Assembly (NCBI GenBank): GCA_964016885.1
Contig: OZ024742.1
Coordinates: 103,106,001-103,170,000 of the forward strand
DNA: 64,000 bases
Direction: 5' to 3'
Source: Eledone cirrhosa
Lineage: Eukaryota
Shown here one piece after another: positions 16,059 to 55,095 of this stretch (positions are counted from its first letter, which is position 1; every line of letters begins with the position of its first letter). The translations under genes and the position numbers were made by a program. The notes under the pieces were generated by a model. That model was not told where the DNA came from. It did no database searches and saw only the letters and a program-made list of their open reading frames with translations.

Positions 16059-16290
16059 TAAATCTAGCTGTCGTCTGTTCTACAGTGTGGATGTCATTCA
16101 CTTCGCACAGAAGTTTTGTTCAACTTTATTGACGAAATTTTGTGAGTTCAAACTTAATTTTGATACAATTGTGTAGCTTGACCCTCCGTCTGAACTGTCA
16201 GGCGGTGGGTCAGTTCATCTTTACCCCTCCTAGAGGTGAAAAACCTGTTTTAAAAAATTTTGTGTAAAAAATTTCAATCGTCTAACAGAA

Positions 16291-18192
16291 ATGTTAAACG
16301 CAGCGAACGAAAATAGTGGTGGGGGGACAGCGGTAAGAGTTGTAAGCTCGCACGCTTTAGTCCTCCCTTCCTTCCCAACTAACGTCATAGAGAAGGAAGG
16401 AAAAATGAAAATAAAAACGGACGAATCTGCGGAGAAAAAATTAAATGACGAAAACATAAATCTGGACTTGGATTCCAACAACGAAAAAAAAAAATTGGAA
16501 AAATTGCATGACAATACTAATAACACAAACAAAGACACAACAAACAAAAAAATAACAGTTGAAAATAACACCATATCAGAAAACAAAGCAGACGACAAGA
16601 TTTCATTTGCACAGAAAACAAAGAAATCTTTGACTTATATAGCGGAAAACATTTCAGATGTGGTACGAAGGATCACGGACGCCAAACAATACATAAGTGA
16701 AAGTGAGAATGGTATTTTATTGGTAAAAATGCCTCAAGAATTCACGAAAGACATTGAAAGCCGAACGGTCAAGTTTCGGACCATCAACAACAGTACAAAA
16801 AAACCTGAACAGCCTTCTCAAGCAGATATCAAAACAGTACTCACAGAAGTACTGAATGAAACAACTTTCATAAGAAAAGACAGACTGTATGGAAGCCTAG
16901 CAATTATCATGAAGAACGAATCGGCGGCAAAAAAATGTGCTTTGTCACCGATTCGTTCGAAAAATTTCACCTTTTATCCATCTTATATGGGGAAAAAAAC
17001 TCAACGCATATGGCTGGATGCAAGGATGCCAGATGTGGACTACTGCTGGCTCATAGCTGGCTTCATCGATCCAGTGAATGACAACGTGATTTCCATTGGG
17101 AAAACCACAGGCAATGCGTTCAGTGGAACAGGTATAGAGCTGGTAGTACAAATGAAGCCTGAACGCATCGCCCAAATACCCGACAGAATCCTATTAGAGG
17201 ACCACAGGTATATAAACATTAGCGTGGAGGGGAGAAGGCTGTCCTGCCATATCTGTGCAGGCAGAGGGCACCTGAAGGCCGCTTGTCCCCAACTCAACAA
17301 AAAGAAAACCCTGCTACCAACACCAGCTCCACCACCACCACCACAACAGATAAACAAACAACAAAACTCAGTCCCACCCAACCCGTCCCTCAGTAAAACC
17401 ACAACACCACCACAACACAAACAGTCACAACACATTACCCCAAAACAAAATACAGGCCCACCCAACCTCTCACTCAATAAAACAACACAACCACCGCAGA
17501 CACAACACACAACACAGTCTAACATAGTGACATCCATCTCCCCCACAAAGAAAACCAACACGGAAACATTACCAGCAAACATACCTCTTCCCTCCAACAC
17601 TGAAGATAACCCAACGAATTCGGAGGAAGAAACGGAGTCCTTCAGACAGATTAAAAGGAAAAAAAGAAAACATGTGCAAAACACACAAGGACAAACAACC
17701 CCCACCCAAATCGCAACACAATCCAACAAAACAGAAAACACCCCTGCAGCAACAAACAAAACCAAACCTGCCCCTCCCCTCTTCGAAACACTCACACCAT
17801 CGGAAAAAAAGACATTACACTATACTTACATCAACAGAAACAATAATAAATTAAATGAACTCATATACAATAATCCTTCGGTACAAACCGAAGGTGTAAA
17901 CTTTGTTTCGTCAGAAAACCACCCACATTTAAAACTAATAAAAATCCCAATGAACCTCTACCAAAAACTAAAAAAGGATTTTAAGGAGGACGTAGGACCA
18001 CCCTCTGTCAAACCCATAAACCGCGTCCTACTAAAAAGCTTTCCCCCTCCCCTTCCCCTCCCCAACACAACTCCAAACACCCCAACCCCACCACACACTG
18101 ACGACCCCACACCACCACAAGACACCCCTTCACCCAACACCCCCGACCCCATGGAAGTCGTGCAACCCGAACCCCGGGAAGCGGAAAGGTAG
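16291..18192 (+). CDS. LINE ORF1p, gag-like nucleic-acid-binding protein (633 aa)
   Basis: CCHC zinc knuckle CHICAGRGHLKAAC, basic NLS-like KRKKRK, P/T/Q-rich tail; ends 33 nt before ORF2. Confidence 0.85.
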   Translation: MLNAANENSGGGTAVRVVSSHALVLPSFPTNVIEKEGKMKIKTDESAEKKLNDENINLDLDSNNEKKKLEKLHDNTNNTNKDTTNKKITVENNTISENKADDKISFAQKTKKSLTYIAENISDVVRRITDAKQYISESENGILLVKMPQEFTKDIESRTVKFRTINNSTKKPEQPSQADIKTVLTEVLNETTFIRKDRLYGSLAIIMKNESAAKKCALSPIRSKNFTFYPSYMGKKTQRIWLDARMPDVDYCWLIAGFIDPVNDNVISIGKTTGNAFSGTGIELVVQMKPERIAQIPDRILLEDHRYINISVEGRRLSCHICAGRGHLKAACPQLNKKKTLLPTPAPPPPPQQINKQQNSVPPNPSLSKTTTPPQHKQSQHITPKQNTGPPNLSLNKTTQPPQTQHTTQSNIVTSISPTKKTNTETLPANIPLPSNTEDNPTNSEEETESFRQIKRKKRKHVQNTQGQTTPTQIATQSNKTENTPAATNKTKPAPPLFETLTPSEKKTLHYTYINRNNNKLNELIYNNPSVQTEGVNFVSSENHPHLKLIKIPMNLYQKLKKDFKEDVGPPSVKPINRVLLKSFPPPLPLPNTTPNTPTPPHTDDPTPPQDTPSPNTPDPMEVVQPEPREAER

Positions 18193-18225
18193 GTCTCTAC
18201 ACTCTCCTTTGGCTCTGCCGCCCAC

Positions 18226-21200
18226 ATGGATGTGTTAAGAGTAGGATGTTTGAATGCACGTGGCCTGGGCTCAACTTGGAAGCAAGCAAAGCTTCTAAAT
18301 GACCTCAGGTCATGTAGTATAAATGTAATGGTTATCTGTGAGACTCGAATCAGCGTCATGCGGCAGCTGGCCCCCACCTTCGATGACTTTGAGGTGCATG
18401 CATCTCTCTGTCAACCTGGAGGTGGGGGTGGGGTTGTCGTACTGCTGCAAAAACACCTGGGTCTTGCCGTACAGGTTGTGCACTCGGACCCGGAGGGTCG
18501 TTTGTTGGTGCTAGACGTTGGCAGTAGTGAAAGTGCGGCCTTGAGACTGGTCGCCGTCTACTCCCCTTTCGGAGCTGAACGGCCCGACTTCTTCCAGCGT
18601 TTGGAGACTTTTCTGGGAACGTCGCGTTCCCTGCTTCTAGCGGGGGATTGGAATGACATCCTGGATGCACGTTGGGACTATGCAGGAGCATGTCCTAATA
18701 GAGGGGGGTGTAACAGCCTCAAGGGGTTACTCGACCGTTTTAACTTGATCGATAGATATCGACTAGATTTTCCAACTGTGCCTACCTGGACTTGGAGAAA
18801 CCACAGTGGTCAATCTAGATCGTACTTAGATAGATTCTTAGTTAGAAGTAAGGATAGGGACATATTAAGCTGTCCAGAAATGCGCACGGTTGGCTACACG
18901 GATCACAAATTAGTGACCTGCGTGGTCAATCTCGAGAAAACACATAGACAGGGTCCCGGTTACTGGAAACTTAATTTGTCTTTACCGGCAAAAGAGACTT
19001 ACAGAAACCGGATTAGCAGATTAGTTAAGGAGAGGTTGACGGGTGCAATCGTCAACAACCGATGGTGGGCATCTCTCAAAAGAGAGATTAGAACAGAATC
19101 AATAAGTTATAGCAAGATGTTAGCTGCCGATAGGAATAGAAACGAGAAAGAATTAACAGGTAAATTAGAAGAGGCAATCAAGAGCGAAGATGTGGCCAGA
19201 GTGCTGGCATCGAGGACGGCCTTGAACCAGTTTTTCGATGCAAAGCATGAAGGCTGCGTCATTCGAAGTAAAATACGTGCTCTAGGTAATGAGGGGGCCA
19301 AAACCGTTGGATGGGCCCGCGTGACAGAAGCTAAGAGTGGAAATCGATCCACCATCCGGTCGTTGCAAGACGAAGATGGACGAGTGATCCGGGAGCCTAA
19401 GCAGATGTGCGAGGCCTTTCAAAAGCACTTTGCCCGATTGTTCGGGGGAGGCGAGGGTCCGGGCCGGGGCGTGGATTTCGGTCCATACCTCGACGGCCTG
19501 CCGCGTCTCTCGAACAAAGAGGCAGAGTCCTGCGAGGGACCAATCTCGGCTGATGAGATCGGAGATGCGCTGAGCCAATGCAGCAGACGCAAATCTCCAG
19601 GTCTCGATGGTATACCTTACGAACTTTATTTAGCAATGCCGGTCTTCTTCTCCGAACTCCTCGAAGCGGTCTACTGCAATTGGCAGCAGAACGGGAGAAT
19701 TCCTTGTTCTGTAGCCAAGGGCGTAGTCACGCTGGTGAGGAAGGACGAGAACAAGGGGGATAGTATAAATAATTTTCGGCCCATAACCCTGCTAAACACA
19801 GAGTTAAAGATTTTGGCCAAGGTGTTAGCAAAGAGGTTGGCGCTTGTCGTGGGTGGCCTGGTGGGAGATGCGCAGACATGTGCTATCCCATCCAGGTCCA
19901 TTCACGATAACCTCCACCTCATGCGATACATCGTAGAGAGGGTTGGCAACAAACCCGGCTTCGGTGGGGCCCTGATCAACTTGGATCAGTCTAAGGCCTT
20001 CGATAGGGTCGACCATGGTTACCTGGATGCGGTGCTAGCGGCGGCTGGGTTCGGTCCTGTTTTCAGAGGCTGGATCACTGCCCTACATAGCAACCACATC
20101 TGTTCTAGGATCAAGGTGAACGGCTACCTTTCGAAGCCGTTCGAAATCACACGATCCATTCGACAGGGGTGCCCTCTCTCCTCCCTTCTGTACGTATTGA
20201 CTCTCGAGCCTTTACTGAGGAAGTTGGAGTTGTTGCAGAGTATCCCCCTGGAACCAGGATTGAGCAAAGCGGTGTCGGCCTACGCCGATGACGTAACAGT
20301 AATGGTATCAACCGACTCGGAGATCGAGGCGATCGGTACCTTACTGGAGGAGTACGAAAGGTTGTCAGGAGCGAAACTGAACCGGGAAAAATCCATCGGG
20401 CTGCAACTCGGAACGTGGAGAGGCAAACCGATGCCTCCTGACGGTGTCGTCGGACACTGGACGGAGGGCCCGGTAAAGTTGCTTGGGGTCTGGTTTGGAC
20501 CGGACCTCCAGGTGGAAAAGAACTGGAACGAGGTTACGAACAAGGTGTTTGCACTAACCCAGAAATGGGCCAAGTGTAAGCTGTCCCTAAAAGGCCGGGC
20601 GGAGGTGGCGAACATTTACATAGCGTCCGTCACTTACTACCGCCTGACTGTCGTGCCTTGCCCTAAGGAAACACTCACCACCATGGAACGCATGCTCTTC
20701 CAATTTCTTTGGAAGAAGCGTCCTCCTATGGTGAGAAGATCCATCTGCTGCCAACAACCTTCGAAAGGAGGGCTGGGGATGCCGTGGTTGATGATGCGTA
20801 GGCACGCATTAAGGCTACGGCACCTACAGGTATTCCTCACTGGTCAACCGGTGTGGGCTCCGTTCGTGAAACGAGCCTTTCCGAGACTCGTCTCACTCAC
20901 CGAGCTACAGTCCTGGGTCAAGCAAAGATCCGGAAAAATGGGAGACTGGCACACTGAGTGTGCTCAAGCGCTCAGGGCTCTCTGGCAAGCGGGCCAGGCC
21001 ATCGGTGGAGAATCCACCTCATCATTCTATAGAGGGCTGGTGGCTAGCAGGGGCGATGACACCCTTGGAGAGTCGCTGGACATGGAAGAAGACGAACTGG
21101 CCAGCCTGTTCGGTAGGACTTTCGGCCCAGGACCAATGGACAACTTCCAGAAGTCACTGGCCTGGCAGTGCTACCGAGGGGCTCTACCCGTTCGAGAGAG

Positions 21201-21663
21201 GCTCTACAGACACGGGCGCCCGGGCAGGGATCCCTCAAAAAAGATTTGCCCTAGATGCGTGCGTCACGAAGAAACCGTAGCGCACGCATTGGTGCAATGT
21301 CCGGGCGTGGCTGATCTGTGGGGCTACGCCGAACAACTGCTGTCGCGGGTGGCGCCGATTAAATTGACCGCCGAGTCCGTGATGACAATCAAACCGCCTC
21401 CCCTCTTCACAAAGGAAGCAAAGGCGGTTTTTCTGTGCGTAATAGCCATGTTGAAAGAGGTTGTTTGGTGGACACGATTGAAAGGTCTGAGGTCAGGCAA
21501 CTTCCTCTCTGGCCATAGTCTGGTCTACTTCTTCCGATATCACTTCGGAAGAAGGATAAGGATGGAGAGAGAGGTGCTTGGCCACAGGCAGTTTTATGAA
21601 AGGTGGGTGATAGTGGCGAGAATGGCTCGTGTAAATGGGCCTTCTCTGTATACCATCCTGTAG
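18226..21663 (+). CDS. LINE ORF2p: APE endonuclease + reverse transcriptase + C-terminal zinc finger (1145 aa)
   Basis: APE motifs LNARGL, CETR, GDWN, YLDRFL, TDHK; RT motifs KSPGLDG, FRPITLLN, DQSKAFDRVDH, RQGCPLS, YADD; C-terminal CPRC...ETVAHALVQC. Confidence 0.95.
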   Translation: MDVLRVGCLNARGLGSTWKQAKLLNDLRSCSINVMVICETRISVMRQLAPTFDDFEVHASLCQPGGGGGVVVLLQKHLGLAVQVVHSDPEGRLLVLDVGSSESAALRLVAVYSPFGAERPDFFQRLETFLGTSRSLLLAGDWNDILDARWDYAGACPNRGGCNSLKGLLDRFNLIDRYRLDFPTVPTWTWRNHSGQSRSYLDRFLVRSKDRDILSCPEMRTVGYTDHKLVTCVVNLEKTHRQGPGYWKLNLSLPAKETYRNRISRLVKERLTGAIVNNRWWASLKREIRTESISYSKMLAADRNRNEKELTGKLEEAIKSEDVARVLASRTALNQFFDAKHEGCVIRSKIRALGNEGAKTVGWARVTEAKSGNRSTIRSLQDEDGRVIREPKQMCEAFQKHFARLFGGGEGPGRGVDFGPYLDGLPRLSNKEAESCEGPISADEIGDALSQCSRRKSPGLDGIPYELYLAMPVFFSELLEAVYCNWQQNGRIPCSVAKGVVTLVRKDENKGDSINNFRPITLLNTELKILAKVLAKRLALVVGGLVGDAQTCAIPSRSIHDNLHLMRYIVERVGNKPGFGGALINLDQSKAFDRVDHGYLDAVLAAAGFGPVFRGWITALHSNHICSRIKVNGYLSKPFEITRSIRQGCPLSSLLYVLTLEPLLRKLELLQSIPLEPGLSKAVSAYADDVTVMVSTDSEIEAIGTLLEEYERLSGAKLNREKSIGLQLGTWRGKPMPPDGVVGHWTEGPVKLLGVWFGPDLQVEKNWNEVTNKVFALTQKWAKCKLSLKGRAEVANIYIASVTYYRLTVVPCPKETLTTMERMLFQFLWKKRPPMVRRSICCQQPSKGGLGMPWLMMRRHALRLRHLQVFLTGQPVWAPFVKRAFPRLVSLTELQSWVKQRSGKMGDWHTECAQALRALWQAGQAIGGESTSSFYRGLVASRGDDTLGESLDMEEDELASLFGRTFGPGPMDNFQKSLAWQCYRGALPVRERLYRHGRPGRDPSKKICPRCVRHEETVAHALVQCPGVADLWGYAEQLLSRVAPIKLTAESVMTIKPPPLFTKEAKAVFLCVIAMLKEVVWWTRLKGLRSGNFLSGHSLVYFFRYHFGRRIRMEREVLGHRQFYERWVIVARMARVNGPSLYTIL

Positions 21664-21877
21664 GTAAAGAAGTAAAGGAGAGGGGAGCACCTTCTCCATG
21701 TGCTCCCCGGGCAAAGGATTGCACACTTTTTCGGGGGTGTGTGCAACCCCCATCACGTCCCCTCCCTTTTGAGGTTATTTTCGATTATTTTCATGTTACA
21801 CCCTTTTTACTCGATTATATGTAAACTCCCCCTTTGTATTTGTCCCTTCTTTTTATGCCTTTATGGTAAATAAAGAA

Positions 21878-23598: not shown

Positions 23599-23691
23599 AT
23601 ACATACATACATACATACATACATACATACATACATACATACATACATACATACATACATACATACATACATACATACATACATACATACA

Positions 23692-24023
23692 TGGCTACGT
23701 TTCCATTTTCAGAATTTCCATTACTTGATCCCCCCTTCCTCTAACAGATGGGTAGCACGAAAAAAGAGCCATTTTAGGTTATGGCCAGCCATGCTCATGC
23801 AACACGTGTGAAAGATATTGAGAGTAAGTGATGCCTGTGGTTGAAGCTTTTTTTTTAAGTGAAGGAAGGCCTTGTACTGGACTAATCTCATCCGCTGAAC
23901 AACGGTCACGTGGAAATATTCGGTTTGGTGCCTGGGCGCGCGGCTAGGACATTATCCTAGGAGAAGGATAAATGTGATGTAAAACCATGGCAACCAATGA
24001 TATTGACCTGTTATTCTTTTTGG
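23692..24023 (+). mobile_element. Probable 3' end (ORF tail + UTR) of another RLE element, between two (CATA)n arrays
   Basis: (CATA)n at 23599-23691 and 24024-24109; broken peptide KRAILG...HV.KILRV resembles the R4/Dong C-terminal KA.LLGT..ILRK.L motif. Confidence 0.4.
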
Positions 24024-30152: not shown

Positions 30153-32002
30153 ATATATATATATATATATATAAATGAAAATATAGAAATTATTGCAGCA
30201 AGAAGCCAACAGTATTCCATAATATATAAGTGACTATAGCGTCAACATGGGAAAAAGAATCAGGATATAGATTCATCCAACAGAATTTAGTGAAATCCAG
30301 GGAAAAATCAATAGAGCCTTAACTCATGATAAAATAAAGTTTAAAATACTCATCCTTCAATTTGGAAAAACTACAAATGCTCTGTATAGTAAGCCCTTGC
30401 GGTTCACAACTTTTGTTAGTGTTGTCTTTGACTAGAGGACACTTTAGATACTGTGTCCATAGATATGTCGAGAACAAACAAATGGGATTTTTCATGACTG
30501 GTATGCCTTTGATCATAGAGTTGACCTGGCGCTAAATAACAACAATGGCCATCACCTCTTCAAAGTTGGATTAGCAACAATCTGAATGACACTTCGGTCA
30601 TAGTCTTTAACCACAAAAGGTTAAACCGACTTTATTAAAGTTTGAAGGCGATGAACTTACACAGTTGTTGGAACGTCGGCATGTAATACTTTGTGGTATT
30701 ATTTCTGGCAGTGGATTGGCAGTATCGGTAGAGGGTCGGACGCCATGCTTTGCAGCAAAGAGTTACGGCCCTTTATGGTCTGAGTTCAAATCCCGCCGAG
30801 GTTAACTTTGCCTTTCATCCTTCCGGGGTCGATAAAATAAAAGTAGCAGTAATGCACTGGGATAATTGCTGGCCTTGTGCCCAAAATAGAAACATTTATT
30901 GCCGGCTCTCTGTGCTCTCTGAGTTCGAACCCCGCCGAGATCAACTTTACTTTCATTCTTTTGAAGTCGATAAAAACGTACTAGTCTAGTACTGAAGTGA
31001 ATTCTTCCCTCATAGTCTCTTTATCTGGAAGAAATTGACTGTGTTCAGACCTGGAGAAGGGAGGGGCTCCGTTAGATTTAAAACACTCAATACATGACGT
31101 TTGACTCCATCAGGAGTTAAAGGTCTAAACATACATGCACATACAGACAGAAATACACCTGCATACATACACACATATACACATAGACACATATGCATAC
31201 ATACATGCCAGCATACATACATACATGCATGCAAACATACACATGCATGCATGCATGCATACATACATACCAGCATACATACATGCAAACATACACATGC
31301 ATGCATACATACCAGCATGATGATGACTGCCCCCTCGTTATCGAGTATGGCCATTGCACGATATACCATTATTAATAATTATTAATTAATTCTATCGTGC
31401 AATGCCTGTGCGTGAAGATATTTTTTAAAGTGAGGAAAGACTGTGCACTGAGCCAATCCCACTCTCTGAGCGACAGTAGCTATAACCCGAAAAGAAGAAA
31501 AGATCAACATCATCGGTAACTACTGAGCCGCAGGTTTTATATCGGAGTTATCTCAGTTTCCTGAGTTGCCTTCTCCTAGAAGAATGCCCTGACAAAAGCT
31601 AGGGGTCCTTCACTCCCAGTGGTTTAACCACGCGATCGGTTTGTCCAGCCCGACTATTTCTATGTCCCCGCGCATGTACATACACATGCACCCATGTATA
31701 TACACATATACATATACATATATATGTACATGTGTATATACATATTTACATACATTTGGATGGCCATTGACTCTTATGAGATCTTCCGCCCTTTGTCAGG
31801 TTTTGTTTTTTTGTCCTGCAGGGTGTCCAAAATCACCCTCCTCACTCAGTACACTTGGTGGGGTTACCGGTTTAGTCGCCGACGACCATGCGACAAGTTG
31901 TACTGGGCTACAGGTTACCAGTAGCACTCAAGAGTGACCCGACATAACATACCAGCATACATGCAAACATACACATGCATGCATATATTCACACATACAT
32001 AC

Positions 32003-32515
32003 AAGGAACACCTTGAAAGATATTCCCTGCCAGATAATCAACAACTCACACCCAGGGAAGTCGCCCAGCAGTACCGCAGTGAATCCATGGATGAAAAGCT
32101 GCATGCTTATCAGCAAAAAATCATGCATAGATATGTTGCCAGGAAGCTCCAGAGTGAGAGTAAGATAGATAAGAAAAGTAGTCTATCTTGGACCAACAAC
32201 CGCTATATTGGCTCCCACTTTGAAGGATATGCTTTTGCAATCCAAGAATAGGAAATCAACACGAAATACCTGATTCACAAAAGAGATAGAGATGCAGGAA
32301 AAACACCTAGATGTGACAACAAGTGCACACTCTGCAGAATTAACATCGAAGATGTTACCCATGTGATAAGCAGCTGTCCAAAGATGTCATCACGGTACTA
32401 TCTACCTATGAGGAATGGTGTAGTGGTCAAAACACTGTACAATGCAATCCGTAGAAAAGATAGCCCCGATAATAAACACATCAAAAGCTACAGCAATGTG
32501 GAAGACATACATATA
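32003..32515 (+). pseudogene. R4/Dong-type relic, same family as 22081-23598
   Basis: KEHLERYSLPDNQQLTPRE...SHFEGYAFAIQE, SSCPKMSSRYYLPMRN; preceded by degenerate (CATA)n. Confidence 0.85.
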
Positions 32516-33232
32516 CATCCCAAAAAGAAGAACAAGTCAACATCATTGGATACCATCAGAGTTGCAGGTGTTATATCAGAGTTTTCCTTCTCCTAGAATT
32601 CTGCCTTGACAAAGGTTAAGGGGTCATCTCTCCCGGTGATTTTGGATGGCCATTGACTCTTAAGAGCTCCTTTGCCCTTTGACAGGTTTTGTTTTTAGTC
32701 CTGCAGGATGTCCAAAGTCACCCTCCTCACCAAGAAACATACATACATACATACATACATACATACATGCATACATAAATACATGCATACATACATACAT
32801 GCATACATACATGCATACATACACAAATACATACATACATGCAAACATACATACATTCATACATACATACATACATACATACACTCACAAATACATACAT
32901 GCATGCATACATACATACACTCATAAATACATACATACATACATGCATACATACATAAATACATACATACATGCAAACATACATACGCATATACATACAT
33001 ACATACATGCAAACATACATACGCATATACATACATACATGCAAACATACATACGCATATACATACATACATACATGCAAACATACATACGCATATACAT
33101 ACATACATACGCATATACATACATACATACATACATATGCGTACACTAAAGTTTGAACTTTGAACAGCTGTAAAGAAAATATCGCATTCATGTTTCTGAA
33201 AAAGCCGACCTCAGAGAATTTAGTCTCTCTTC

Positions 33233-33337
<105 letters not shown>

Positions 33338-33493
33338 CTGTGCCCCAGCATGACCGCAGTTTAATGAGTGAAACCCATAAAAGAATATGTATGTATGTAT
33401 ATTTGCATGCACGCATGTATGTATGTATCTGTGTATGTGTGTATGTATGTATGTATGTATGTATGTATGTATGTATGTATGTATGTATGTATG

Positions 33494-36400
33494 TTTTCTC
33501 TTTCTCTTAATTTCGAGTATATTTTTTTGACCGGCCACCTTCCTGGTGGCAAGGTTGTAAAAGAAAAGAAATTGTCATCCCTTGAATCGCAAGAATGTTT
33601 TGCAAATTTTGAAGGTGCCAGCTATCGCAGCCATTTGTAGACTATGAATTAGGGAGCTGCGCTTTTTGTCCGCAAATCCAAGTTCAGTCATACTTTGGTC
33701 CAGGCGGGTTGGTATATAACCCGTAGCACCAATAATGATGGGTATGAAGCTAAAGGTGTATCTTGGATACTGGATTTGTAAACTCCTCATCAATGGTCCG
33801 TAGATGTCCTCTTTTTCCTGTATTTTTCTGACAACGTTTACATCAAGTGGGCAGCTGATCTCCACAACAGAACACGTTTTCAATGTGTGGTCCCAAACTA
33901 CAATATCAGGCCGGTTGTGCTTTAATTTGGTGGCAGTTTTTATTTTCAGGTTCCACCAGTATTCCTTAGTGCCATCTGTCTCAATATATTCTTCCTCGTT
34001 TGTTGTTAATTTTGTTTTCCGAAGTGCGTTCCAGATGGTTCTAGCTATCCCATCGTGTCTCATGGGGAGGTAGTAGCGAGATGACATTCTTTCGCAGCTG
34101 GCAACAATGTGGCTTACATCCTCGATCTTTGTTTTACATAGCCTACATTTATTGTCAGCTGCTGGCCCTCCTATTTTGTGCAGCAGATATTTGGTAGGGA
34201 GTTCTTGTTCCTGTATTGCATAGAGGTATCCCTCAAGGTGTGATGTCATAAACTTGTCGGAACTCCATACCAGGCTTTTTGAGTGGTTTATCCCCTCTAT
34301 GGTCTGTGTTTTACGCCTCAAGTATCCATGCACAACTTTTTCTGTAAATTGGTCAATTTTTTTATCTTGTTTGAACATTGAATAGGATCTTCCGATTTCT
34401 CTGGGTGAGAGATTTATATCAGGCTTTATTCCATATCTCTCCTCCAGATCAGTCGTTATTCTAATGATATTTCTTTTTTCATGGTCATAAACCTGGGCAA
34501 GATGGTTGCCAACCTTTTTCCTCTGTTGAAGGTGTTGCTTCAGTGTTACTATCCGGGTCTCATATGTTGTTAATATTGATTTTAGACCCCGACCACCTTC
34601 CTTGCGTGAGAAGTATAGCCTATCCACATCACCATTGATGTTAAAGTTCCCAGTAACACTGAGAAGTTTTCGAGTTCTAACATCCATCTCACTTAGTTCT
34701 TGCAATGGCCAGTTCAGTAGGCCAAATGTTGGCGTTAGAATTGGCACAGCATAAGTATTGTGGGCAATGTATTTGTTGTATGCTGACAGTTCTGATGACC
34801 ATATTTTCTTTACCCTTCTGAGGTATTCAGTTCTGGTTCTCTCCTTATTTATGGGTCCATCATATCTGACATTCTCATCCTGTCCAAGATATCTGTAGTT
34901 GTCACCTGACTGCAGAGGTTGTATTGTCAGGCCGTTCATCTCTAGATTTCTAGAGGAGGGCACAGCTCTTCCACGTTTTACTGCCAAATATGCACACTTG
35001 GACTCACCAAATTTCATTTTGATGTCGGTTGAAAATTGTGTAATGAGGTCCAATTGTTTCTTGATGTCATTGATATTTGGCCCATACAACTTCAGGTCAT
35101 CAACAAAGAAAAGATGGGAGATACTTCTGGGCCCACTTCTTTGTCCACCTTGTTTCCTGAGTAGGTAAGATAGTGGATTCAGTGAGAGAACGAAGAGTAG
35201 CACTGACAAGCTATCACCCTGAAAGATGCCCTTCTGGTAATGTATCTTATCAGTCTTAACCTGCTCCTTCTCACCTCTAAGGATCAAACTGGTGTACCAG
35301 TTCTTGGTCAGGCGTTCAACAGCAGCTACCAATGGTTGTGGGACTTTAGCTAACTGTAAAGCCTTAACAATCCACCCATGAGGTACACTATCAAATGCTT
35401 TTTGATAGTCCAGCCACACGACAGTCATGTTTCTGCGATTCTTTGTTGTTTTTTCCTGAATCATTTTGTTAGTTAGTAGGTGATCTATGCAACCCCACAC
35501 CTCCCTCTTTCCACCAGCTTGCTCAGGTGTTATGATGTTGTTGGTAGCACAGTGATCCTGTAAGAACAGGTTAAGGCACCCAGTATATAATTTATACATG
35601 ATGTTTTGGCAGGCAATTGGGCGGTAATTTTTAGCAAGGGTGGTTTGGCTATTTTTGGGAATGAGGAGAGTAGTGGCAGTTGATAACCATCTGGGCAGTT
35701 CTTGTGTGCCCTTAATGATTTCTGTAAACAGCCGTATGAGATCTTGCCGATAGAAAGTGAAATTCTTCAACCAGTATCCTGTAATGAGGTCTGGGCCTGG
35801 CGATTTCCTATTCGACATTTTCTGTAGAGCTGTTTCCAGTATTGACCCATCTATGTCATATTGTTTTGTCTGGACATGTTGGCAGTAGTCCTGTTCCAGT
35901 TCTTTTAGCCAATTAGCTTGTCTGTTGAATCCGTCATCCGTTTCCCATACAGATCTCCAGTAGCTCTCAACCTGTTCTTTTGAAGGGGTGTCATTTACAG
36001 AGATTGAGCTTTTGCCACCGAAGCTGCGATAAACTGATTTAGGATCTCTGGCAAACAATCTATTTAGCACTTGTCGTTTATGTGCTGTTGACTTATATTT
36101 CAGTCTTTCTGTTGTAGCTGTGAGTTGTTGTTTCAACTGGTGTAATTTGGAGTTCAAAGTTTTAAATTTTGTATCTCCAAATCGTCTCTCTAACTTTTTC
36201 TTTAGGTCTTCCTGGTGTCGTGTGAAGCTGCTCTCTATGTTGCATTTCATAACGACTGCGATGTGTGAGATACTTCGTCTCAGGGACAAAATTTTGGATT
36301 TTAAATTTCGCATCCACGCTGGTTCAGGCTTCCCGCTTGTATCTTGATTGCGTGGTTTTAGATGTGTGTTATATGATAGCAATGTGACAGCTGAAACATA

Positions 36401-36556
36401 TAACAAAACATTAAGCGTTTCAAATGTCGTTTCTACACCTTTAGATCGTATAGCCTTCAGATAACTGCCAGCTATTTCGTTCACCGCTTCCAATTCCAAT
36501 TTAGTGGGTTCTTTACTGACTCTAGTGTTGTATGGTCTGTCACTCACATTAAGGCT
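33494..36556 (-). mobile_element. 5'-truncated R4/Dong-type RLE non-LTR retrotransposon inserted in (CATA)n
   Basis: Uninterrupted ORF plus an 81-nt 3' UTR with hairpin GCCACC/GGTGGC (33534-33550); (CATA)n on the element strand at both ends (36557-37163 and 33387-33493). Confidence 0.92.
33575..36556 (-). CDS. RT + CCHC knuckle + PD-(D/E)xK-type RLE polyprotein, about 990 aa, N-terminus missing
   Basis: PAWMRNL, KSPGPDLITGYWLK, YRPIAC, LDYQKAFDSVPH, GIFQGDSLS, FVDDLK, CRLC...EDVSHIVASC, RHD, RPDIVVWD...VVEISCP. Confidence 0.9.
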   Translation of the reverse strand, partial: SLNVSDRPYNTRVSKEPTKLELEAVNEIAGSYLKAIRSKGVETTFETLNVLLYVSAVTLLSYNTHLKPRNQDTSGKPEPAWMRNLKSKILSLRRSISHIAVVMKCNIESSFTRHQEDLKKKLERRFGDTKFKTLNSKLHQLKQQLTATTERLKYKSTAHKRQVLNRLFARDPKSVYRSFGGKSSISVNDTPSKEQVESYWRSVWETDDGFNRQANWLKELEQDYCQHVQTKQYDIDGSILETALQKMSNRKSPGPDLITGYWLKNFTFYRQDLIRLFTEIIKGTQELPRWLSTATTLLIPKNSQTTLAKNYRPIACQNIMYKLYTGCLNLFLQDHCATNNIITPEQAGGKREVWGCIDHLLTNKMIQEKTTKNRRNMTVVWLDYQKAFDSVPHGWIVKALQLAKVPQPLVAAVERLTKNWYTSLILRGEKEQVKTDKIHYQKGIFQGDSLSVLLFVLSLNPLSYLLRKQGGQRSGPRSISHLFFVDDLKLYGPNINDIKKQLDLITQFSTDIKMKFGESKCAYLAVKRGRAVPSSRNLEMNGLTIQPLQSGDNYRYLGQDENVRYDGPINKERTRTEYLRRVKKIWSSELSAYNKYIAHNTYAVPILTPTFGLLNWPLQELSEMDVRTRKLLSVTGNFNINGDVDRLYFSRKEGGRGLKSILTTYETRIVTLKQHLQQRKKVGNHLAQVYDHEKRNIIRITTDLEERYGIKPDINLSPREIGRSYSMFKQDKKIDQFTEKVVHGYLRRKTQTIEGINHSKSLVWSSDKFMTSHLEGYLYAIQEQELPTKYLLHKIGGPAADNKCRLCKTKIEDVSHIVASCERMSSRYYLPMRHDGIARTIWNALRKTKLTTNEEEYIETDGTKEYWWNLKIKTATKLKHNRPDIVVWDHTLKTCSVVEISCPLDVNVVRKIQEKEDIYGPLMRSLQIQYPRYTFSFIPIIIGATGYIPTRLDQSMTELGFADKKRSSLIHSLQMAAIAGTFKICKTFLRFKG

Positions 36557-37057
36557 GTGTATGTATGTATGTATGTATGTATGTATGTATGTATGTATGT
36601 ATGTATGTATGTATGTATGTATGTATGCATGCAGGTATGTATGTATGTATGTATGCATGCAGGTATGTATGTATGTATGCAGGTATGAATGTATGTATGT
36701 ATGTATGTATGTATGTATGTATGTATGTATGTATGTATGTATGTATGCAGGTATGTATGTATGAATGTATGCGTGTATGTATGTAGGTATGTATATGTGT
36801 GTATGTATGTATGCATGTGTATGCATGTATGTATGTATGCAGGTATGTATGCATGTATGTATGTATGTGTATGTATGTATGTATGTATGTATGTATGTAT
36901 GTATGTATGTATGTATATATATATGTATGTATGTATGTATGTATATATGTATATATCTGTATGTATGAATGTATATATGTATGTATATATTTATGTGTGC
37001 ATGTATGTATGTATATATGTGTATGTATATGTATGTATGTATGTATATATGTGTATG

Positions 37058-37089
<32 letters not shown>

Positions 37090-37559
37090 TGTATGTATGT
37101 ATGTATGTATGTATGTATGTATGTGTATGTATGTATGTGTATGTATGTATATATGTATATATGTCTATGCATTTTTGTACGTTCATGAGTAAAAAGATAA
37201 ATAACCTTTGCCTTCCCTTTATATAAAACATTTCGGCAAAACTTAAAAAGTTACAAAACTAAAACATGAAACAAAACAAAAGAGAACCCCCTCCTCCCTG
37301 TTTGTTATTGATGATTCTACACTACAGCTGTGATAAATACGACGTTGATAAATGGTTTGACCATATGTATATATGTGTAGGTATATATATGTATATGTAT
37401 GTGTTTGTGTGATTGACCTCCGTACATACCTCATGAGATAAATAACAACCAGCTTTCCCAGGGAAAACAGTTTCCGCCCTTTACTACTTCTAGTAACAAC
37501 AACAACAACAACAAACTAAAGACAAAACAAGAATAAATAAATAAATAATACAGCATCAA

Positions 37560-42130: not shown

Positions 42131-43737
42131 TCGTCTCGGCCGCAGTCAGAGTTGTTGCCTCAGAGGACACTGTCCTCCAAACCACCGAGGAGATCCTGGC
42201 TGCTCTGCGGCTCAAACACCCTGATACACCCACTGATCTCAGACCCATACCCCCACCCGACCCCCACCCGCTCCTTGTGGCTACTGATGCAGATATCATG
42301 TCCGCCATCAGGTCCTTCCCAGCTAGCAGCTGTGGAGGTGTTGATGGTCTCTGACGAGGCCACCTCAAAGAGTTGACATCCCCCTCTCCGCTGAGGCCGG
42401 GCGCCGCCTTCTGAGTGCAATTGTAGCGCTCACCAATAGGCTCATTCATGGTGCCCTCGACCCTTACGCCCGAGGCCTCTTTTTTTTGGCTAGCCTCACC
42501 GCTCTCAGGAAGAAAGAGGATAGCATACGCCCCATTGCTGTGGGCAATGTCTTCCGGAGGCTGGCTGCCAAGGTGATCTGCAAATCCGTCACACACGAAC
42601 TGGGTGAGGAGTTTTGTCCAGTGCAACTGGGTGTCGGCGTGTCCGGTGGCTGTGAGGGAGCCTCTCATGCAATCAGGAAGTTCTTCAGCAGTTGCCCATC
42701 GGTACCGGCATCCAGGGACTCCAGGCACCTCATTGTCAAGCTTGACATGAGGAATGCCTTTAACTCTTTACGACGGGATCATCTGCTCGAGGCCTGCCCC
42801 AGCCGAGCCCCCTCTGCCTACCCGCTGGCCTACCTGTCATATGGAGCCCCGAGAATGTTCCTAGCTGCTGATACGGTCATACCCTCGGCTACTGGCGTCC
42901 AACAGGACGGCCCTTTGGGAGCCCTCCTGTTCGACCTTGGTATTGACCACATCACCCGGAGTATCACGGCCCCTCTCAACGTTTAGTATCTGGATGATGC
43001 TACGTTGGGCGGGCCCGTACAGACGGTCTGCCAAGACCTTCAATCGGTGATTCCTGCCCTGGCGGGAATCGGCCTCCGGGTTCACTCGGCCAAGTCGGAG
43101 GTGGTGAACGTCAGCCTCGCTGCTGTGAGCTTTGCAGCCTCCCTCTTGGATGTGCGGTCCATTCTCCGCCAGATTCAGGTGACCCCCAAAGAGGATGTCC
43201 TCATCCTCGGGTCACCGAGCAGCAGCCGAGGGGATATGCAACGTCAAGTTTGACGACATAGGGTGGCAACAGGCCACTTTACCGGTCAGGTATGGTGGCC
43301 TAGGCCTCCGGTCCCCGATCTCACTAGCTTTGCCGGCGTATCTTTCGTCGGTAACCTCGTGTCGCGTCCTCGTCTGCAGGGTTCTTCAAAACACAACAGA
43401 ACCCTCTGTGTTCAGAGAACGTGAGGCCGCCTGTGAGACGTGAGGACCAGCTGGGATTAGCCCAGTAGACGTCCCCCCAACGCACTTGGGATGTCACCCA
43501 GTGCAGCCTGGCCTCAGACAGGCTCACGCACCAGCTCGACCAGCACCGCCTTGCTTGTTTTCGTGCGGCCTCCAAACCCCACAGTGGTGCCTGGCTCCAT
43601 GCTCTGCCCTCCTTCTTCACTGGCACGCAGCAAGACAACCATAGCATGCGAATCGGCGTTTCCCTGAGGCTCGGCCTCCGGATCTGCGAGCCACACCAAT
43701 GTCGCTGCGGTTCCACCATGGACTCTTTCGGCCTCAG
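42131..43737 (+). pseudogene. Decayed CRE-clade non-LTR retrotransposon (RT region)
   Basis: LTALRKKEDSIRPIAVGNVFRRLAAK, QLGVGVSGGCE, KLDMRNAFNSL, GVQQDGPLG, YLDD, QATLPVRYGGLGLR, HSGAWLHALP; stops and deletions. Confidence 0.88.
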
Positions 43738-51865: not shown

Positions 51866-51990
51866 TAGGAACGAGTAGGACCCCGACGGCTGAACTCAAG
51901 CCGTTTCGACGGCTAATTTTGGACTAAAAATTTTAGTCCAGAATTAGCCGTCGAAACGGCTTGAGCTCAGCTGTCGGGTTCCTACTCGTT

Positions 51991-51995
<5 letters not shown>
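51866..51995. repeat. 64-bp-arm palindrome (4 mismatches) containing the 3' half of a hammerhead
   Basis: Arms compared by hand; contains GAAA-CGGC-TTGAGCTCA-GCTG-TC-GGG. Confidence 0.9.
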
Positions 51996-52060
<65 letters not shown>

Positions 52061-52061
<1 letters not shown>

Positions 52062-55055
52062 TGATGCTCGCTACCTCCCAAATAACCGACAGTGACTATA
52101 TAATTATTGCAGGCGACCTAAATGGTCATGTTGGACAACATTGTGACGGCTATGACGGAATCCATGGAGGCTATGGGTTCGGTACTAGAAATGAGGAAGG
52201 CTCCAGAATCCTGGAATTCTGTGACGCAAATAACCTAACTATCTGTAACACTAACTTCAAAAAACGAGACAATCACTTGATCACCTATAGATCGGGGGAA
52301 CACACAAGCCAGGTAGATTATATCCTTACCAGAAGACGTGACAGAGTGTCTGTTGTAAACACTAAATCCCTCCCCCATGAAGAATGCACCGCCCAACATA
52401 GACTGATAATTAGCGACCTCATAGTCAGAACGAGACGTACTAGACAGCAGAAGAGGACTATCCTCAGGAGAAAAATATGGAAGCTAAAGGACCCCAGAGC
52501 CAGAAATAAATTTCAAAGCATATTACTTGATGCTTTCGACAGTAAGGAAGAGCAATTAGAGTCGTATAATATAGAGGAACAGTGGGGATTCCTGAAAGCA
52601 AACCTGCTGACGGCGGCAGACGAAGTCTGTGGCTGGAACAGGCCTGTAGGTAGGAGGAGAGTAACATCGTGGTGGAACAGTAAGGTGGAGGAGTCAATTA
52701 AGGCCAAAAAGCAGGCTTGGAAAGTATGGCGGGATGGGGGAAGTAGAGAAGACTATCAAGTGGCCAGGAGGGAAGCTAGGACACAAGTGTACTTCGCAAG
52801 AAGGGAAGCAGAGGAAAGAAAGTTCAAGCATGTTCTACAGCGTGAGGACCAAAAATGTGAGGTGTTCAGGATGGCTAGGCAATGTGTCAAGGAAAACCGT
52901 GATATTGTCGGGGAGAAGTGTGTCCTTAATGATGATGGCGTACTTGCCATCACTGACGCTGATAAGAAGGTAGCTTGGAAGTGTCACTACGAAAGGCTTC
53001 TAAATGAGGAGAATAAATGGGAGAAAGACAGTCTCCCCCACATCGTCCCAATAGAGGGATCAGCAGTGTTAGTCGGAAATAGTTGCTGAGATGCTGAAAG
53101 CCTCTGGAACGGTGGGACACACCATGTCACCCGGATAGTAAACCAAGTCATACAGAATGGGGTTGTTCCGAAGGACTGGCGTAGCAGCATCATCATTAAC
53201 TGTTACAAGGGTAAAGGAGATGCCCTAGATAGGAGTAACTATAGAGGCATTAAATTAATCGACCATGTCATGAAGGTCACGGAAAAAGTAATAGCGCAAC
53301 TAATCAGAGAGAGAATTGATCTAGATGAAATGCAGTTCGGGTTTGTGTCAGGCAAAAGTACCACAGACGCTCTTTTCATTGTACGACAACTACAGGAGAA
53401 GTACCTAGCTAAAAGTAAACCCCTATACTTAGCTTTTGTTGACTTGGAGAAAGCCTTCGACAGAGTCCCCCGTTCCATTATCTGGTGGGCTCTTAGAAAA
53501 CAAGGTGTTGACGAATGGCTTGTGAGAGCTAGACAAGCCATGTATAAAGAAACAGTCAGCAAGGTTAGAATTAACAACGAATATAGTGAAGAGTTTAGTG
53601 TAAAAGTTGGTGTTCATCAGGGCTCTGTTCTTAGCCCCCTACTATTTATTATTGCCCTTCAGGCTATAACAGTGGAGTTCAAGACCGGCTGCCCATGGGA
53701 ACTCCTATACGCAGATGATCTAACGCTCATAGCTGAATCAATGGCCGAGCTAGAGAAGAAATTCCAAACATGGAAGCACGGCCTAGAATCAAAAGGCCTT
53801 AAAATTAACCTGGCTAAGACTAAAGTTCTAGTTTGTAGGAAAGAAAATATGGCGCCGGTCCCTTCCGGGAAATGGCCATGCTCAGTGTGTAGGAAAGGCG
53901 TAGGTAGAAACTCCATTTTATGTCCCAAATGCAAAGTATGGGTGCATAAAAGATGTAGTGGGATCACAGGTAAGCTAACTAAGAACAGATTTTACATGTG
54001 GCCGGTGCTCTGGTGCAATAAGTAGCAGCAAGTGCCCACAGAATACTAGCTCTTTCAATTGCGCAGAGGGTTCTATAGAAATAGTGGACAGCTTCCGTTA
54101 CCTGGGTGACAAAATCAGCAGTGGGGGAGGGTGCTCTGAAAGTACAGTAGCTAGAGTCAGAACTGGATGGAAAAAAGTTCAGAGAGCTTATACCACTATT
54201 AGCCGCTAAAGGGTTCTCCCTAAAAATGAAAGGCAGGCTGTATGATGCCTGCATACGAACAGCAATGTTGCATGGCAGTGAGACCTGGGCATTGCGTGCA
54301 GAGGATATACGCAAACTAGAGAGGAACGAAGCTTGCATGCTCCGCTGGATGTGTAATAGTAATATACGTGAACGGCAAAGCATAAACGAACTAAGGGAAA
54401 AATTAGAAATAAGAGGGATCAGATGTTGTTTACTCGAGAGAAGGCTACGTTGGTATGGTCACGTGATGCGCATGAAAGACGACAGCTGTATAAAAAAGTG
54501 CAGGGCAATAAAGATAGACGGTAGCCACGGAGTAGGCAGACCCAGAAAAACCTGGGACGAGCTGATAAATTCCGACCTCACACACTTACACCTCTCCAAG
54601 ACAATGTCACTGGACCGAGATCTTTGGCGGTACTCAGTAATAGAGAAGACCTGCCTTGCCTAAATACAAAGTAAACCTACTACAGTCAGTAGGCATCTCT
54701 AACAAAATACGCCCCCGTCCCACCACCCCCACCCCATCCACACCGCCCCCTTCTATGTAAAGTTATGTTGGTGCCATACCATCCAGGCCGAAACAAATGA
54801 GATCGTGTAGGTGTCACGACAAAAAAACACACAGTCCACGCTGTAATGTGGCCGTGTAGGCAACACGGTAAAAACCTCCCAGACCCACACTGTAAATGTG
54901 GTTGGTGTTAGGAAGGGCATCCAGCTGTAGAAAACCCGCCAGACAGTCCTATGCGAGCAAGACAATCACTCTTGCCTCAAGTGGGAAAACCCCCGTCCAA
55001 ACCCATGCAAGCGTGGAACATGGACGTTAAACGTTGATGATGATGGTGATGATGA

Positions 55056-55058
<3 letters not shown>
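52061..55058 (+). mobile_element. 5'-truncated, decayed RTE-clade LINE (APE, RT, PHD finger) with (GAT)n tail, inside (TA)n
   Basis: GDLNGHVG, SQVDYIL, DLEKAFDRVPR, GVHQGSVLSPLLF, YADD, RLRWYGHV, GRPRKTW; 3' UTR TGGTTGGTGTTAGGAAGGGCATCCAGC; (TA)n at 51993-52060 and 55058-55092. Confidence 0.9.

Positions 55059-55095
<37 letters not shown>

Follow-up and report, generated by a model that had tools for sequence, protein, structure and literature searches.

The 64,000-nt stretch of Eledone cirrhosa DNA analysed here (the window; contig OZ024742.1, positions 103,106,001 to 103,170,000, forward strand) contains a 5'-truncated copy of an R4/Dong-type retrotransposon, whose single open reading frame (ORF) encodes a reverse transcriptase (RT), a CCHC zinc knuckle and a restriction-like endonuclease (RLE). 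As a genomic pattern, the family of this element targets CATA tracts, a conclusion that we hold with very high confidence, and these tracts are confirmed as targets, not merely as tails of the element.

Junctions of the family with CATA tracts

Copies were gathered from the 3.0-Gb genome with a 3' probe (265 candidates) and a 5' probe (1059 candidates), of which the best 40 each were scored, these numbers being lower bounds. Copies were ranked on internal sequence only, and the searches were therefore blind to the flanks. A junction was scored as CATA when the 30 nt flanking the alignment end held at least three CATA, a density reached at 0.6% of positions in arbitrary sequence (20 stretches of 10 kb, 200 kb in total; 398,800 positions). 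Among the sampled copies, CATA precedes 64 of 74 5' alignment ends and is found at 65 of 76 3' ends. Three of the ten 5' misses are internal breaks (L096, L089 and L094); after these were dropped and rows with identical junctions merged, a step that also joins some independent full-length copies, 48 of 55 collapsed 5' ends follow CATA. A preliminary description of the window had named 5' junctions of truncated copies in random sequence as the observation that would reduce CATA to a self-encoded tail; among truncated copies only, 36 of 42 follow CATA, at 41 different break points.

The tracts are also entered in a fixed manner. The opposite-strand repeat TATG stands before none of the 55 collapsed 5' junctions, and the 3' flank opens with ACATA in 46 of 55 cases after 0-4 linker bases, which gives a near-fixed register. 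TATA impurities in the 40 nt to the left and to the right of the copies are correlated (rho 0.68; none of 20,000 permutations as high), and both flanks therefore derive from one tract. In the background, (TA)n-type windows are about nine times commoner than CATA (5.1% vs 0.6%), yet they are not the preferred site. Microhomology to the repeat at truncated 5' ends averages 1.8 nt against 0.8 expected (n=26, p=0.0003). No constant target-site duplication is resolvable among the listed junctions: a perfect duplication of at most 3-5 nt is possible at the impure sites L069, L071, L028, L099 and L081, one of 9-13 nt at the impure sites L064, L065 and L086, and one of 37 nt at L100.

Random insertions that survived in repeat tracts, or were mis-joined there during assembly, could be imagined in a microsatellite-rich genome, and passive accumulation has been published for Drosophila Waldo-A/B (PMC3812793; papers are cited, here and below, from parts of their text). 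This explanation is nevertheless largely refuted and seems to us extremely improbable, given the strict polarity (0/55 reverse), the base-level 3' register, the more than 100-fold enrichment and the different repeats used by each family. The same CATA 3' end also recurs in other public data. At least half of the element's words are present in six public runs under three organism labels (one run may be the source of the window), and contigs of runs X1 and X3, and partly those of X7, pass the element 3' end into CATACATAC; run X2 gave no row crossing that end into CATACATAC.

A second alternative, that the element itself encodes CATA as a tail, which RT slippage then expands, with 5' tracts arising from template jumps or from tails of earlier copies, accounts for the fact that many upstream tracts are tails of other copies of this family or of a second family described below (L061, L092, L078, L002, L023 and L028), as well as for the element pieces interleaved with CATA at the 5' ends of L072, L086 and L087. 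We nonetheless regard it as very unlikely: a uniform self-made tail would not give matching impurities on the left and right, some 3' tracts measure just 5-8 nt, and insertion into the tails of earlier copies would be targeting in its own right.

The alternation of CATA with short pieces of the element, observed at the 5' junctions of L072, L086, L087 and L095, is consistent with repeated RNA/target template jumps.

Several points weigh against insertion targeted to CATA. As best-scoring copies only were sampled, old copies are under-represented, and BLAST end-extension could inflate the microhomology figure. The 5' ends of L011 and L030 look true but have no CATA, five others have one or two units, and L029 has a truncated 3' end that runs into DNA without repeats. 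Contigs of four runs, compared with L064 with repeats skipped, gave no empty pre-insertion site in the rows shown, and targeting is deduced from genomic junction patterns. Finally, a non-coding RTE-derived element (element B) is found within these CATA/TA tracts too, in the opposite orientation (21/28 left and 20/28 right; 28 of 30 loci scored). The tracts thus attract more than one enzyme and, as the enzyme source of element B is different, RNA-tail pairing or accessibility can also draw elements to them.

The copy in the window

The features of the window copy and its flanks are as follows.

36562-33495, minus strand: element copy, a 5'-truncated RT-CCHC-RLE retrotransposon of R4/Dong type
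36558..37164, minus strand: upstream (CATA)n tract, one half of the target microsatellite; 607 bp, pure for about 50 bases at the junction and degenerate beyond
36557..36562, minus strand: 5' truncation junction, corresponding approximately to position 1158 in full-length coordinates (4228 bp)
33575..36556, minus strand: remainder of the ORF with its stop; 993 uninterrupted codons, equal to residues 177-1169 of the full-length copy L068
34907..35662, minus strand: RT core (Pfam RVT_1) with QGDSLS and FFVDD motifs
34094..34147, minus strand: zinc knuckle CX2CX8HX4C, a sequence motif
33578..34063, minus strand: RLE with RH, PD, E and K-x3-Y motifs; R2 fold match through the C-terminus
33495..33574, minus strand: 3' untranslated region (UTR), 80 nt, final bases GAGAAAGAGAAA
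33386..33494, minus strand: downstream (CATA)n tract, the other half of the target microsatellite; 109 bp, opening with ACATACAT on the element strand

The preliminary description had reported an uninterrupted RT-CCHC-RLE ORF of about 990 codons joined at both ends to (CATA)n in one orientation, and this account stands. On the minus strand the frame stays open between the CATA tract and its stop codon (33577-33575), and its product differs from L068 at 14 residues; Pfam detects RVT_1 (E 6e-25) and zf-RVT, and the knuckle and RLE motifs are present. Under published motif definitions (CX2CX8HX4C, RH, PD, E, KX2KY; PMC5678591), KX2KY is represented in the RLE by its first K and its Y, with I in place of the second, less conserved K. 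Both flanking tracts read (CATA)n on the element strand, and the 3' end carries no poly(A), GAGAAAGAGAAA being followed by ACATACAT. At the 5' junction, a few bases can be assigned to tract or element alike (microhomology).

The RT-RLE had also been called intact and a candidate integration enzyme. RT and RLE are indeed open; the whole protein is not, as it begins at residue 177 of 1169. The 5' UTR and the first 176 residues, including a putative N-terminal DNA-binding domain, are missing, and the copy was therefore dead on arrival. Its coding part (36556-33578) lacks a start of its own, the first Met being residue 82. A stop-to-stop frame of 1227 aa was rejected as the element's real length, since it is a read-through of the repeat. 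The value of the family as an insertion tool is limited, because a four-base repeat scattered over the genome offers many sites and not a safe harbour.

Full-length copies and age of the family

Full-length copies measure about 4228 bp, with a 5' UTR of 635 nt and one ORF, and begin with AAATGGCG, give or take 0-3 bases. This opening may be similar to a YY1-type motif. Of 40 fetched stretches, four (L064, L068, L092 and L100) carry the entire ORF, 1163-1169 aa long, and long sampled copies are 97-99% identical to the full-length reference copy L066; for these two reasons the family is young, as had been proposed. A search of the 5' end for a ribozyme resembling that of hepatitis delta virus (HDV) gave no ribozyme family in Rfam, the matches being microsatellite-driven or chance and below the gathering score, and a crude ribozyme descriptor gave AT-rich matches only, away from the element 5' end and unconvincing. 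A long stem, with ATTACATAC in its 3' arm, is predicted in the 5' UTR (L066:707-790), and about 140 nt of this UTR are duplicated internally.

Predicted structure and proposed mechanism

An AlphaFold model of the protein (predicted local distance difference test score, pLDDT, 85.7) finds its best match in R2 structures of target-primed reverse transcription (TPRT; Foldseek E 4e-36; VIA Z 32.8, root-mean-square deviation 4.8, 790 aligned), and no solved R4/Dong protein structure was among the PDB matches returned. The N-terminal domain of the model has helices at 22-35, 42-53 and 61-74, with a pLDDT of 85-92 over residues 21-70, and a conserved N-terminal Trp motif is common to the element and to Bombyx mori and Pediculus proteins. 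A divergent Myb/SANT domain has been described at the same N-terminal place in R4/Dong elements (PMC7998251). No Myb match was obtained by Pfam (43 members), PDB profile search or Foldseek (E <= 0.001; query a single-sequence model of residues 11-84, pLDDT 75), which does not exclude such a domain.

We infer the steps of insertion from the junction patterns. The (CATA)n microsatellites likely pre-exist insertion, and a single protein would bind the tract, probably through its three-helix N-terminal domain and the RLE. The RLE would then nick the TATG strand at or next to a T-A step (ATGT^ATGT, to within one base), and the freed 3' OH would prime on the RNA 3' end, with base pairing to a few nucleotides of ACAU(A) probably assisting. 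Lastly, the cDNA end may anneal to upstream repeats, as in the model of 5' joining proposed for R2 (PMC6895275), the second strand being cut at a variable repeat unit. Protein-directed recognition followed by these steps is, in our judgement, probably the correct description: the endonuclease or the N-terminal domain would set the target, and RNA-tail annealing could contribute.

The target might instead be set mostly by the RNA, if a weakly specific endonuclease nicked AT-rich T-A steps and only those nicks that pair with a read-through (ACAU)n tail were extended. The almost fixed 3' register at ACATA would follow, and some insertions (L092, L008 and L081) are in tracts where TA and CATA are mixed, or at the edge of a tract, with just 5-8 matching bases downstream; site choice influenced by the tail has been proposed for RTE (PMC6007223), and element B, which derives from RTE, shares these tracts. 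Pairing, however, needs downstream bases only, whereas upstream tracts are long (median 77 nt), also at sites with a minimal match downstream, and site choice in the R4/Dong and R2 groups has been attributed to the N-terminal domain of the protein (PMC7998251). RNA-guided choice consequently appears unlikely, and recognition by the protein remains the reading that we prefer.

Other retroelements in the window and the genome

The window contains the following further retroelements.

32003..32518, plus strand: fragment of family 2, an older CATA-inserting R4/Dong family of about 50% protein identity
22087..23596, minus strand: decayed family-2-like fragment, adjoining a CATA/TATG-class tract at 23599-23692
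16059-21877, plus strand: Tx1-like element, full-length, with ORFs of 650 and 1156 aa, an apurinic/apyrimidinic endonuclease (APE) and an RT, flanked by (TATC)n
51965-55060, plus strand: RTE-like element with an RT, a PHD-type finger and a (GAT)n tail
32520-32738, minus strand: element B, RTE-derived and non-coding, 609 bp (full copy L089:716-1322)
31399-31944: older relatives of element B
42345-42986, plus strand: decayed RT fragment (RVT_1, E 8e-6) in a GC-rich stretch

Family 2 (2563 candidates) shares both the CATA target and the polarity, at 27 of 30 3' ends and 14 of 20 5' ends; its 5' count was made against long copies, and 10 of 30 ran off the locus. It is older than the window family, its copies being 93-95% identical to each other. 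The ending ...CCAGAAGAA(CATA)n had been considered a short interspersed nuclear element, a reading rejected in favour of the family 2 3' UTR.

Using a TAA-type relative as a probe, Dong-like families of roughly 24-40% protein identity were recovered (L306-L335), several copies of which have open frames of 1216 codons. These control families end in (TAA)n at 25 of 30 3' ends and have at least four TAA at 9 of 15 5' ends; CATA is found at none of the 15 5' ends. In the RTE-like family (2289 candidates), many copies of which adjoin (TA)n runs, CATA precedes one true 5' end out of 11, a count from which 8 of 19 rows were excluded as a break in the window copy, and is found at 0 of 19 3' alignment ends. 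The Tx1-like family, a label that we assume from its architecture, is very young (copies about 99% identical, 993 candidates) and is a candidate second microsatellite-specific family: TATC flanks 8 of the 9 5' ends that are visible, as well as 22 of 25 3' ends, and CATA 0 of 25.

Copies of element B (1170 candidates) are about 98% identical and show duplications of about 10 bp at the impure sites L108, L120 and L121; its 3' part encodes a C-terminal zinc finger, presumably of the RTE-like kind. Relatives of element B, the family-2 fragment and CATA tracts form a nest at 31100-33340 of the window, and many copies are flanked by similar nests. The RT fragment at 42345-42986 resembles, we assume, the CRE group.

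Relatives and a possible change of target

Among named proteins, those of Argonauta hians are the closest (64% across the RT region), which points to an octopod host, and in a quick tree of 48 rows these form the sister group of the element with a Shimodaira-Hasegawa-like approximate likelihood ratio test (SH-aLRT) support of 99. This tree, built without R2 or NeSL outgroups, groups the element with proteins of Argonauta and others that are unnamed, next to proteins of Lepidoptera and lice. No sequences named R4, Dong or Rex6 were among the matches, and the RT tree accordingly lacks named references.

Metagenomic relatives were found at 80 loci, 43 of them reaching the C-terminus. The first repeat after the ORF is (TAA)n in 20, (GAT)n in 3 (L281, L285 and L299) and another repeat in 4, among them (ACA)n in L294, while 16 have none within 700 nt; CATA is the first repeat in none of the 43. 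The closest full-length metagenomic relative (L227:1-4871; 43% identity, one contig) has (CTTA)n at both ends and a 3' UTR of 1.1 kb. This suggests that a subclade moved to four-base repeats, n being small and the targets not mapped on the tree.

With slightly more doubt than belief, we propose that a Dong-type subclade abandoned (TAA)n, the widespread and ancestral target, in favour of repeats of four bases ((CATA)n for two families of octopods, (CTTA)n for the relative), that this shift would be encoded by the protein, and that microsatellites may be partitioned by sequence and strand among active retroelements (Dong, Tx1-like and RTE-derived). The mechanism of microsatellite targeting has been called not well understood (PMC3812793). 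Young whole-ORF families for two targets, CATA and TAA, occur here in one genome, and the target determinant, be it the N-terminal domain, the endonuclease or the RNA tail, is therefore directly testable by swaps; should the switch be encoded by the protein, exchanges between the two Dong proteins would show by what means an RLE element acquires another target. The annotation of repeats and the use of microsatellite markers are also concerned, as active elements nest in many CATA tracts of this genome.

Comparison with known systems

The assignment to the R4/Dong type, already suggested in the preliminary description, is supported by the architecture and by the (TAA)n-ending relatives. The element has a single ORF with RT, CCHC knuckle and C-terminal RLE and no APE domain, and its sampled junctions show the microsatellite insertion typical of R4/Dong elements, which insert in ribosomal DNA (rDNA) or microsatellites (PMC7998251; PMC3812793). 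Dong of B. mori, DongAg and DongBg likewise have a single RT and RLE ORF, no N-terminal zinc fingers and microsatellite insertion (PMC7998251, PMC3812793), and by inspection no C2H2 pattern was seen in residues 1-176 of the four whole ORFs or in the relatives' N-termini shown. An unnamed B. mori RT protein is colinear with the element over its full length (30% identity, E 8e-159). Dong targets (TAA)n, the R4/Dong target in most insects, molluscs and cnidarians (PMC7998251), whereas the junctions of the present family are CATA or mixed CATA/TA, which sets it apart from Dong in the narrow sense; likewise, Dong and R4 carry a 5' HDV-like ribozyme (PMC3774820), while none was convincing here.

R4 of Ascaris and R2 share with the element the RT-CCHC-RLE architecture and the TPRT fold. 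They differ from it in targeting rDNA: the flanks of the present family are microsatellite rather than the 28S rDNA site of R4, and the 13-bp duplication made by R4 (PMC6895275) has no constant counterpart. R2, defined by N-terminal zinc finger(s), Myb and a 28S target, a combination that the element does not show, matches it far more weakly (E 5e-28, RT only).

Dong-R4 elements are abundant in coleoids, and five recently active families with 1129 insertions are reported in O. vulgaris (PMC13282606; PMC8967140). The window family may well be one of these published octopus families; their insertion target is not given in the parts covered of PMC13282606 (text and one supplement) or of PMC8967140, the word 'target' occurring there zero times and once, with another sense, respectively. 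No R4/Dong element with a CATA/TACA target was found in the literature covered, a search that left Repbase and Dfam outside. The family is real, target-specific and young, and CATA is, Repbase and Dfam unchecked, a new target variant within R4/Dong, a changed target being an expected kind of event in this group.

Among retrotransposons at large, the target has been described before. Waldo elements belong to the R1 clade and have two ORFs. The present element has one ORF, no Exo_endo_phos match was found in its full-length protein, and it is consequently not a Waldo. WaldoAg1, WaldoAg2 and WaldoFs1 are nonetheless specific for ACAY microsatellites, including (ACAT)n (PMC3812793). With Waldo elements being APE-type (PMC3812793) and the RLE of the present element lying at the C-terminus, their common target is a case of convergence.

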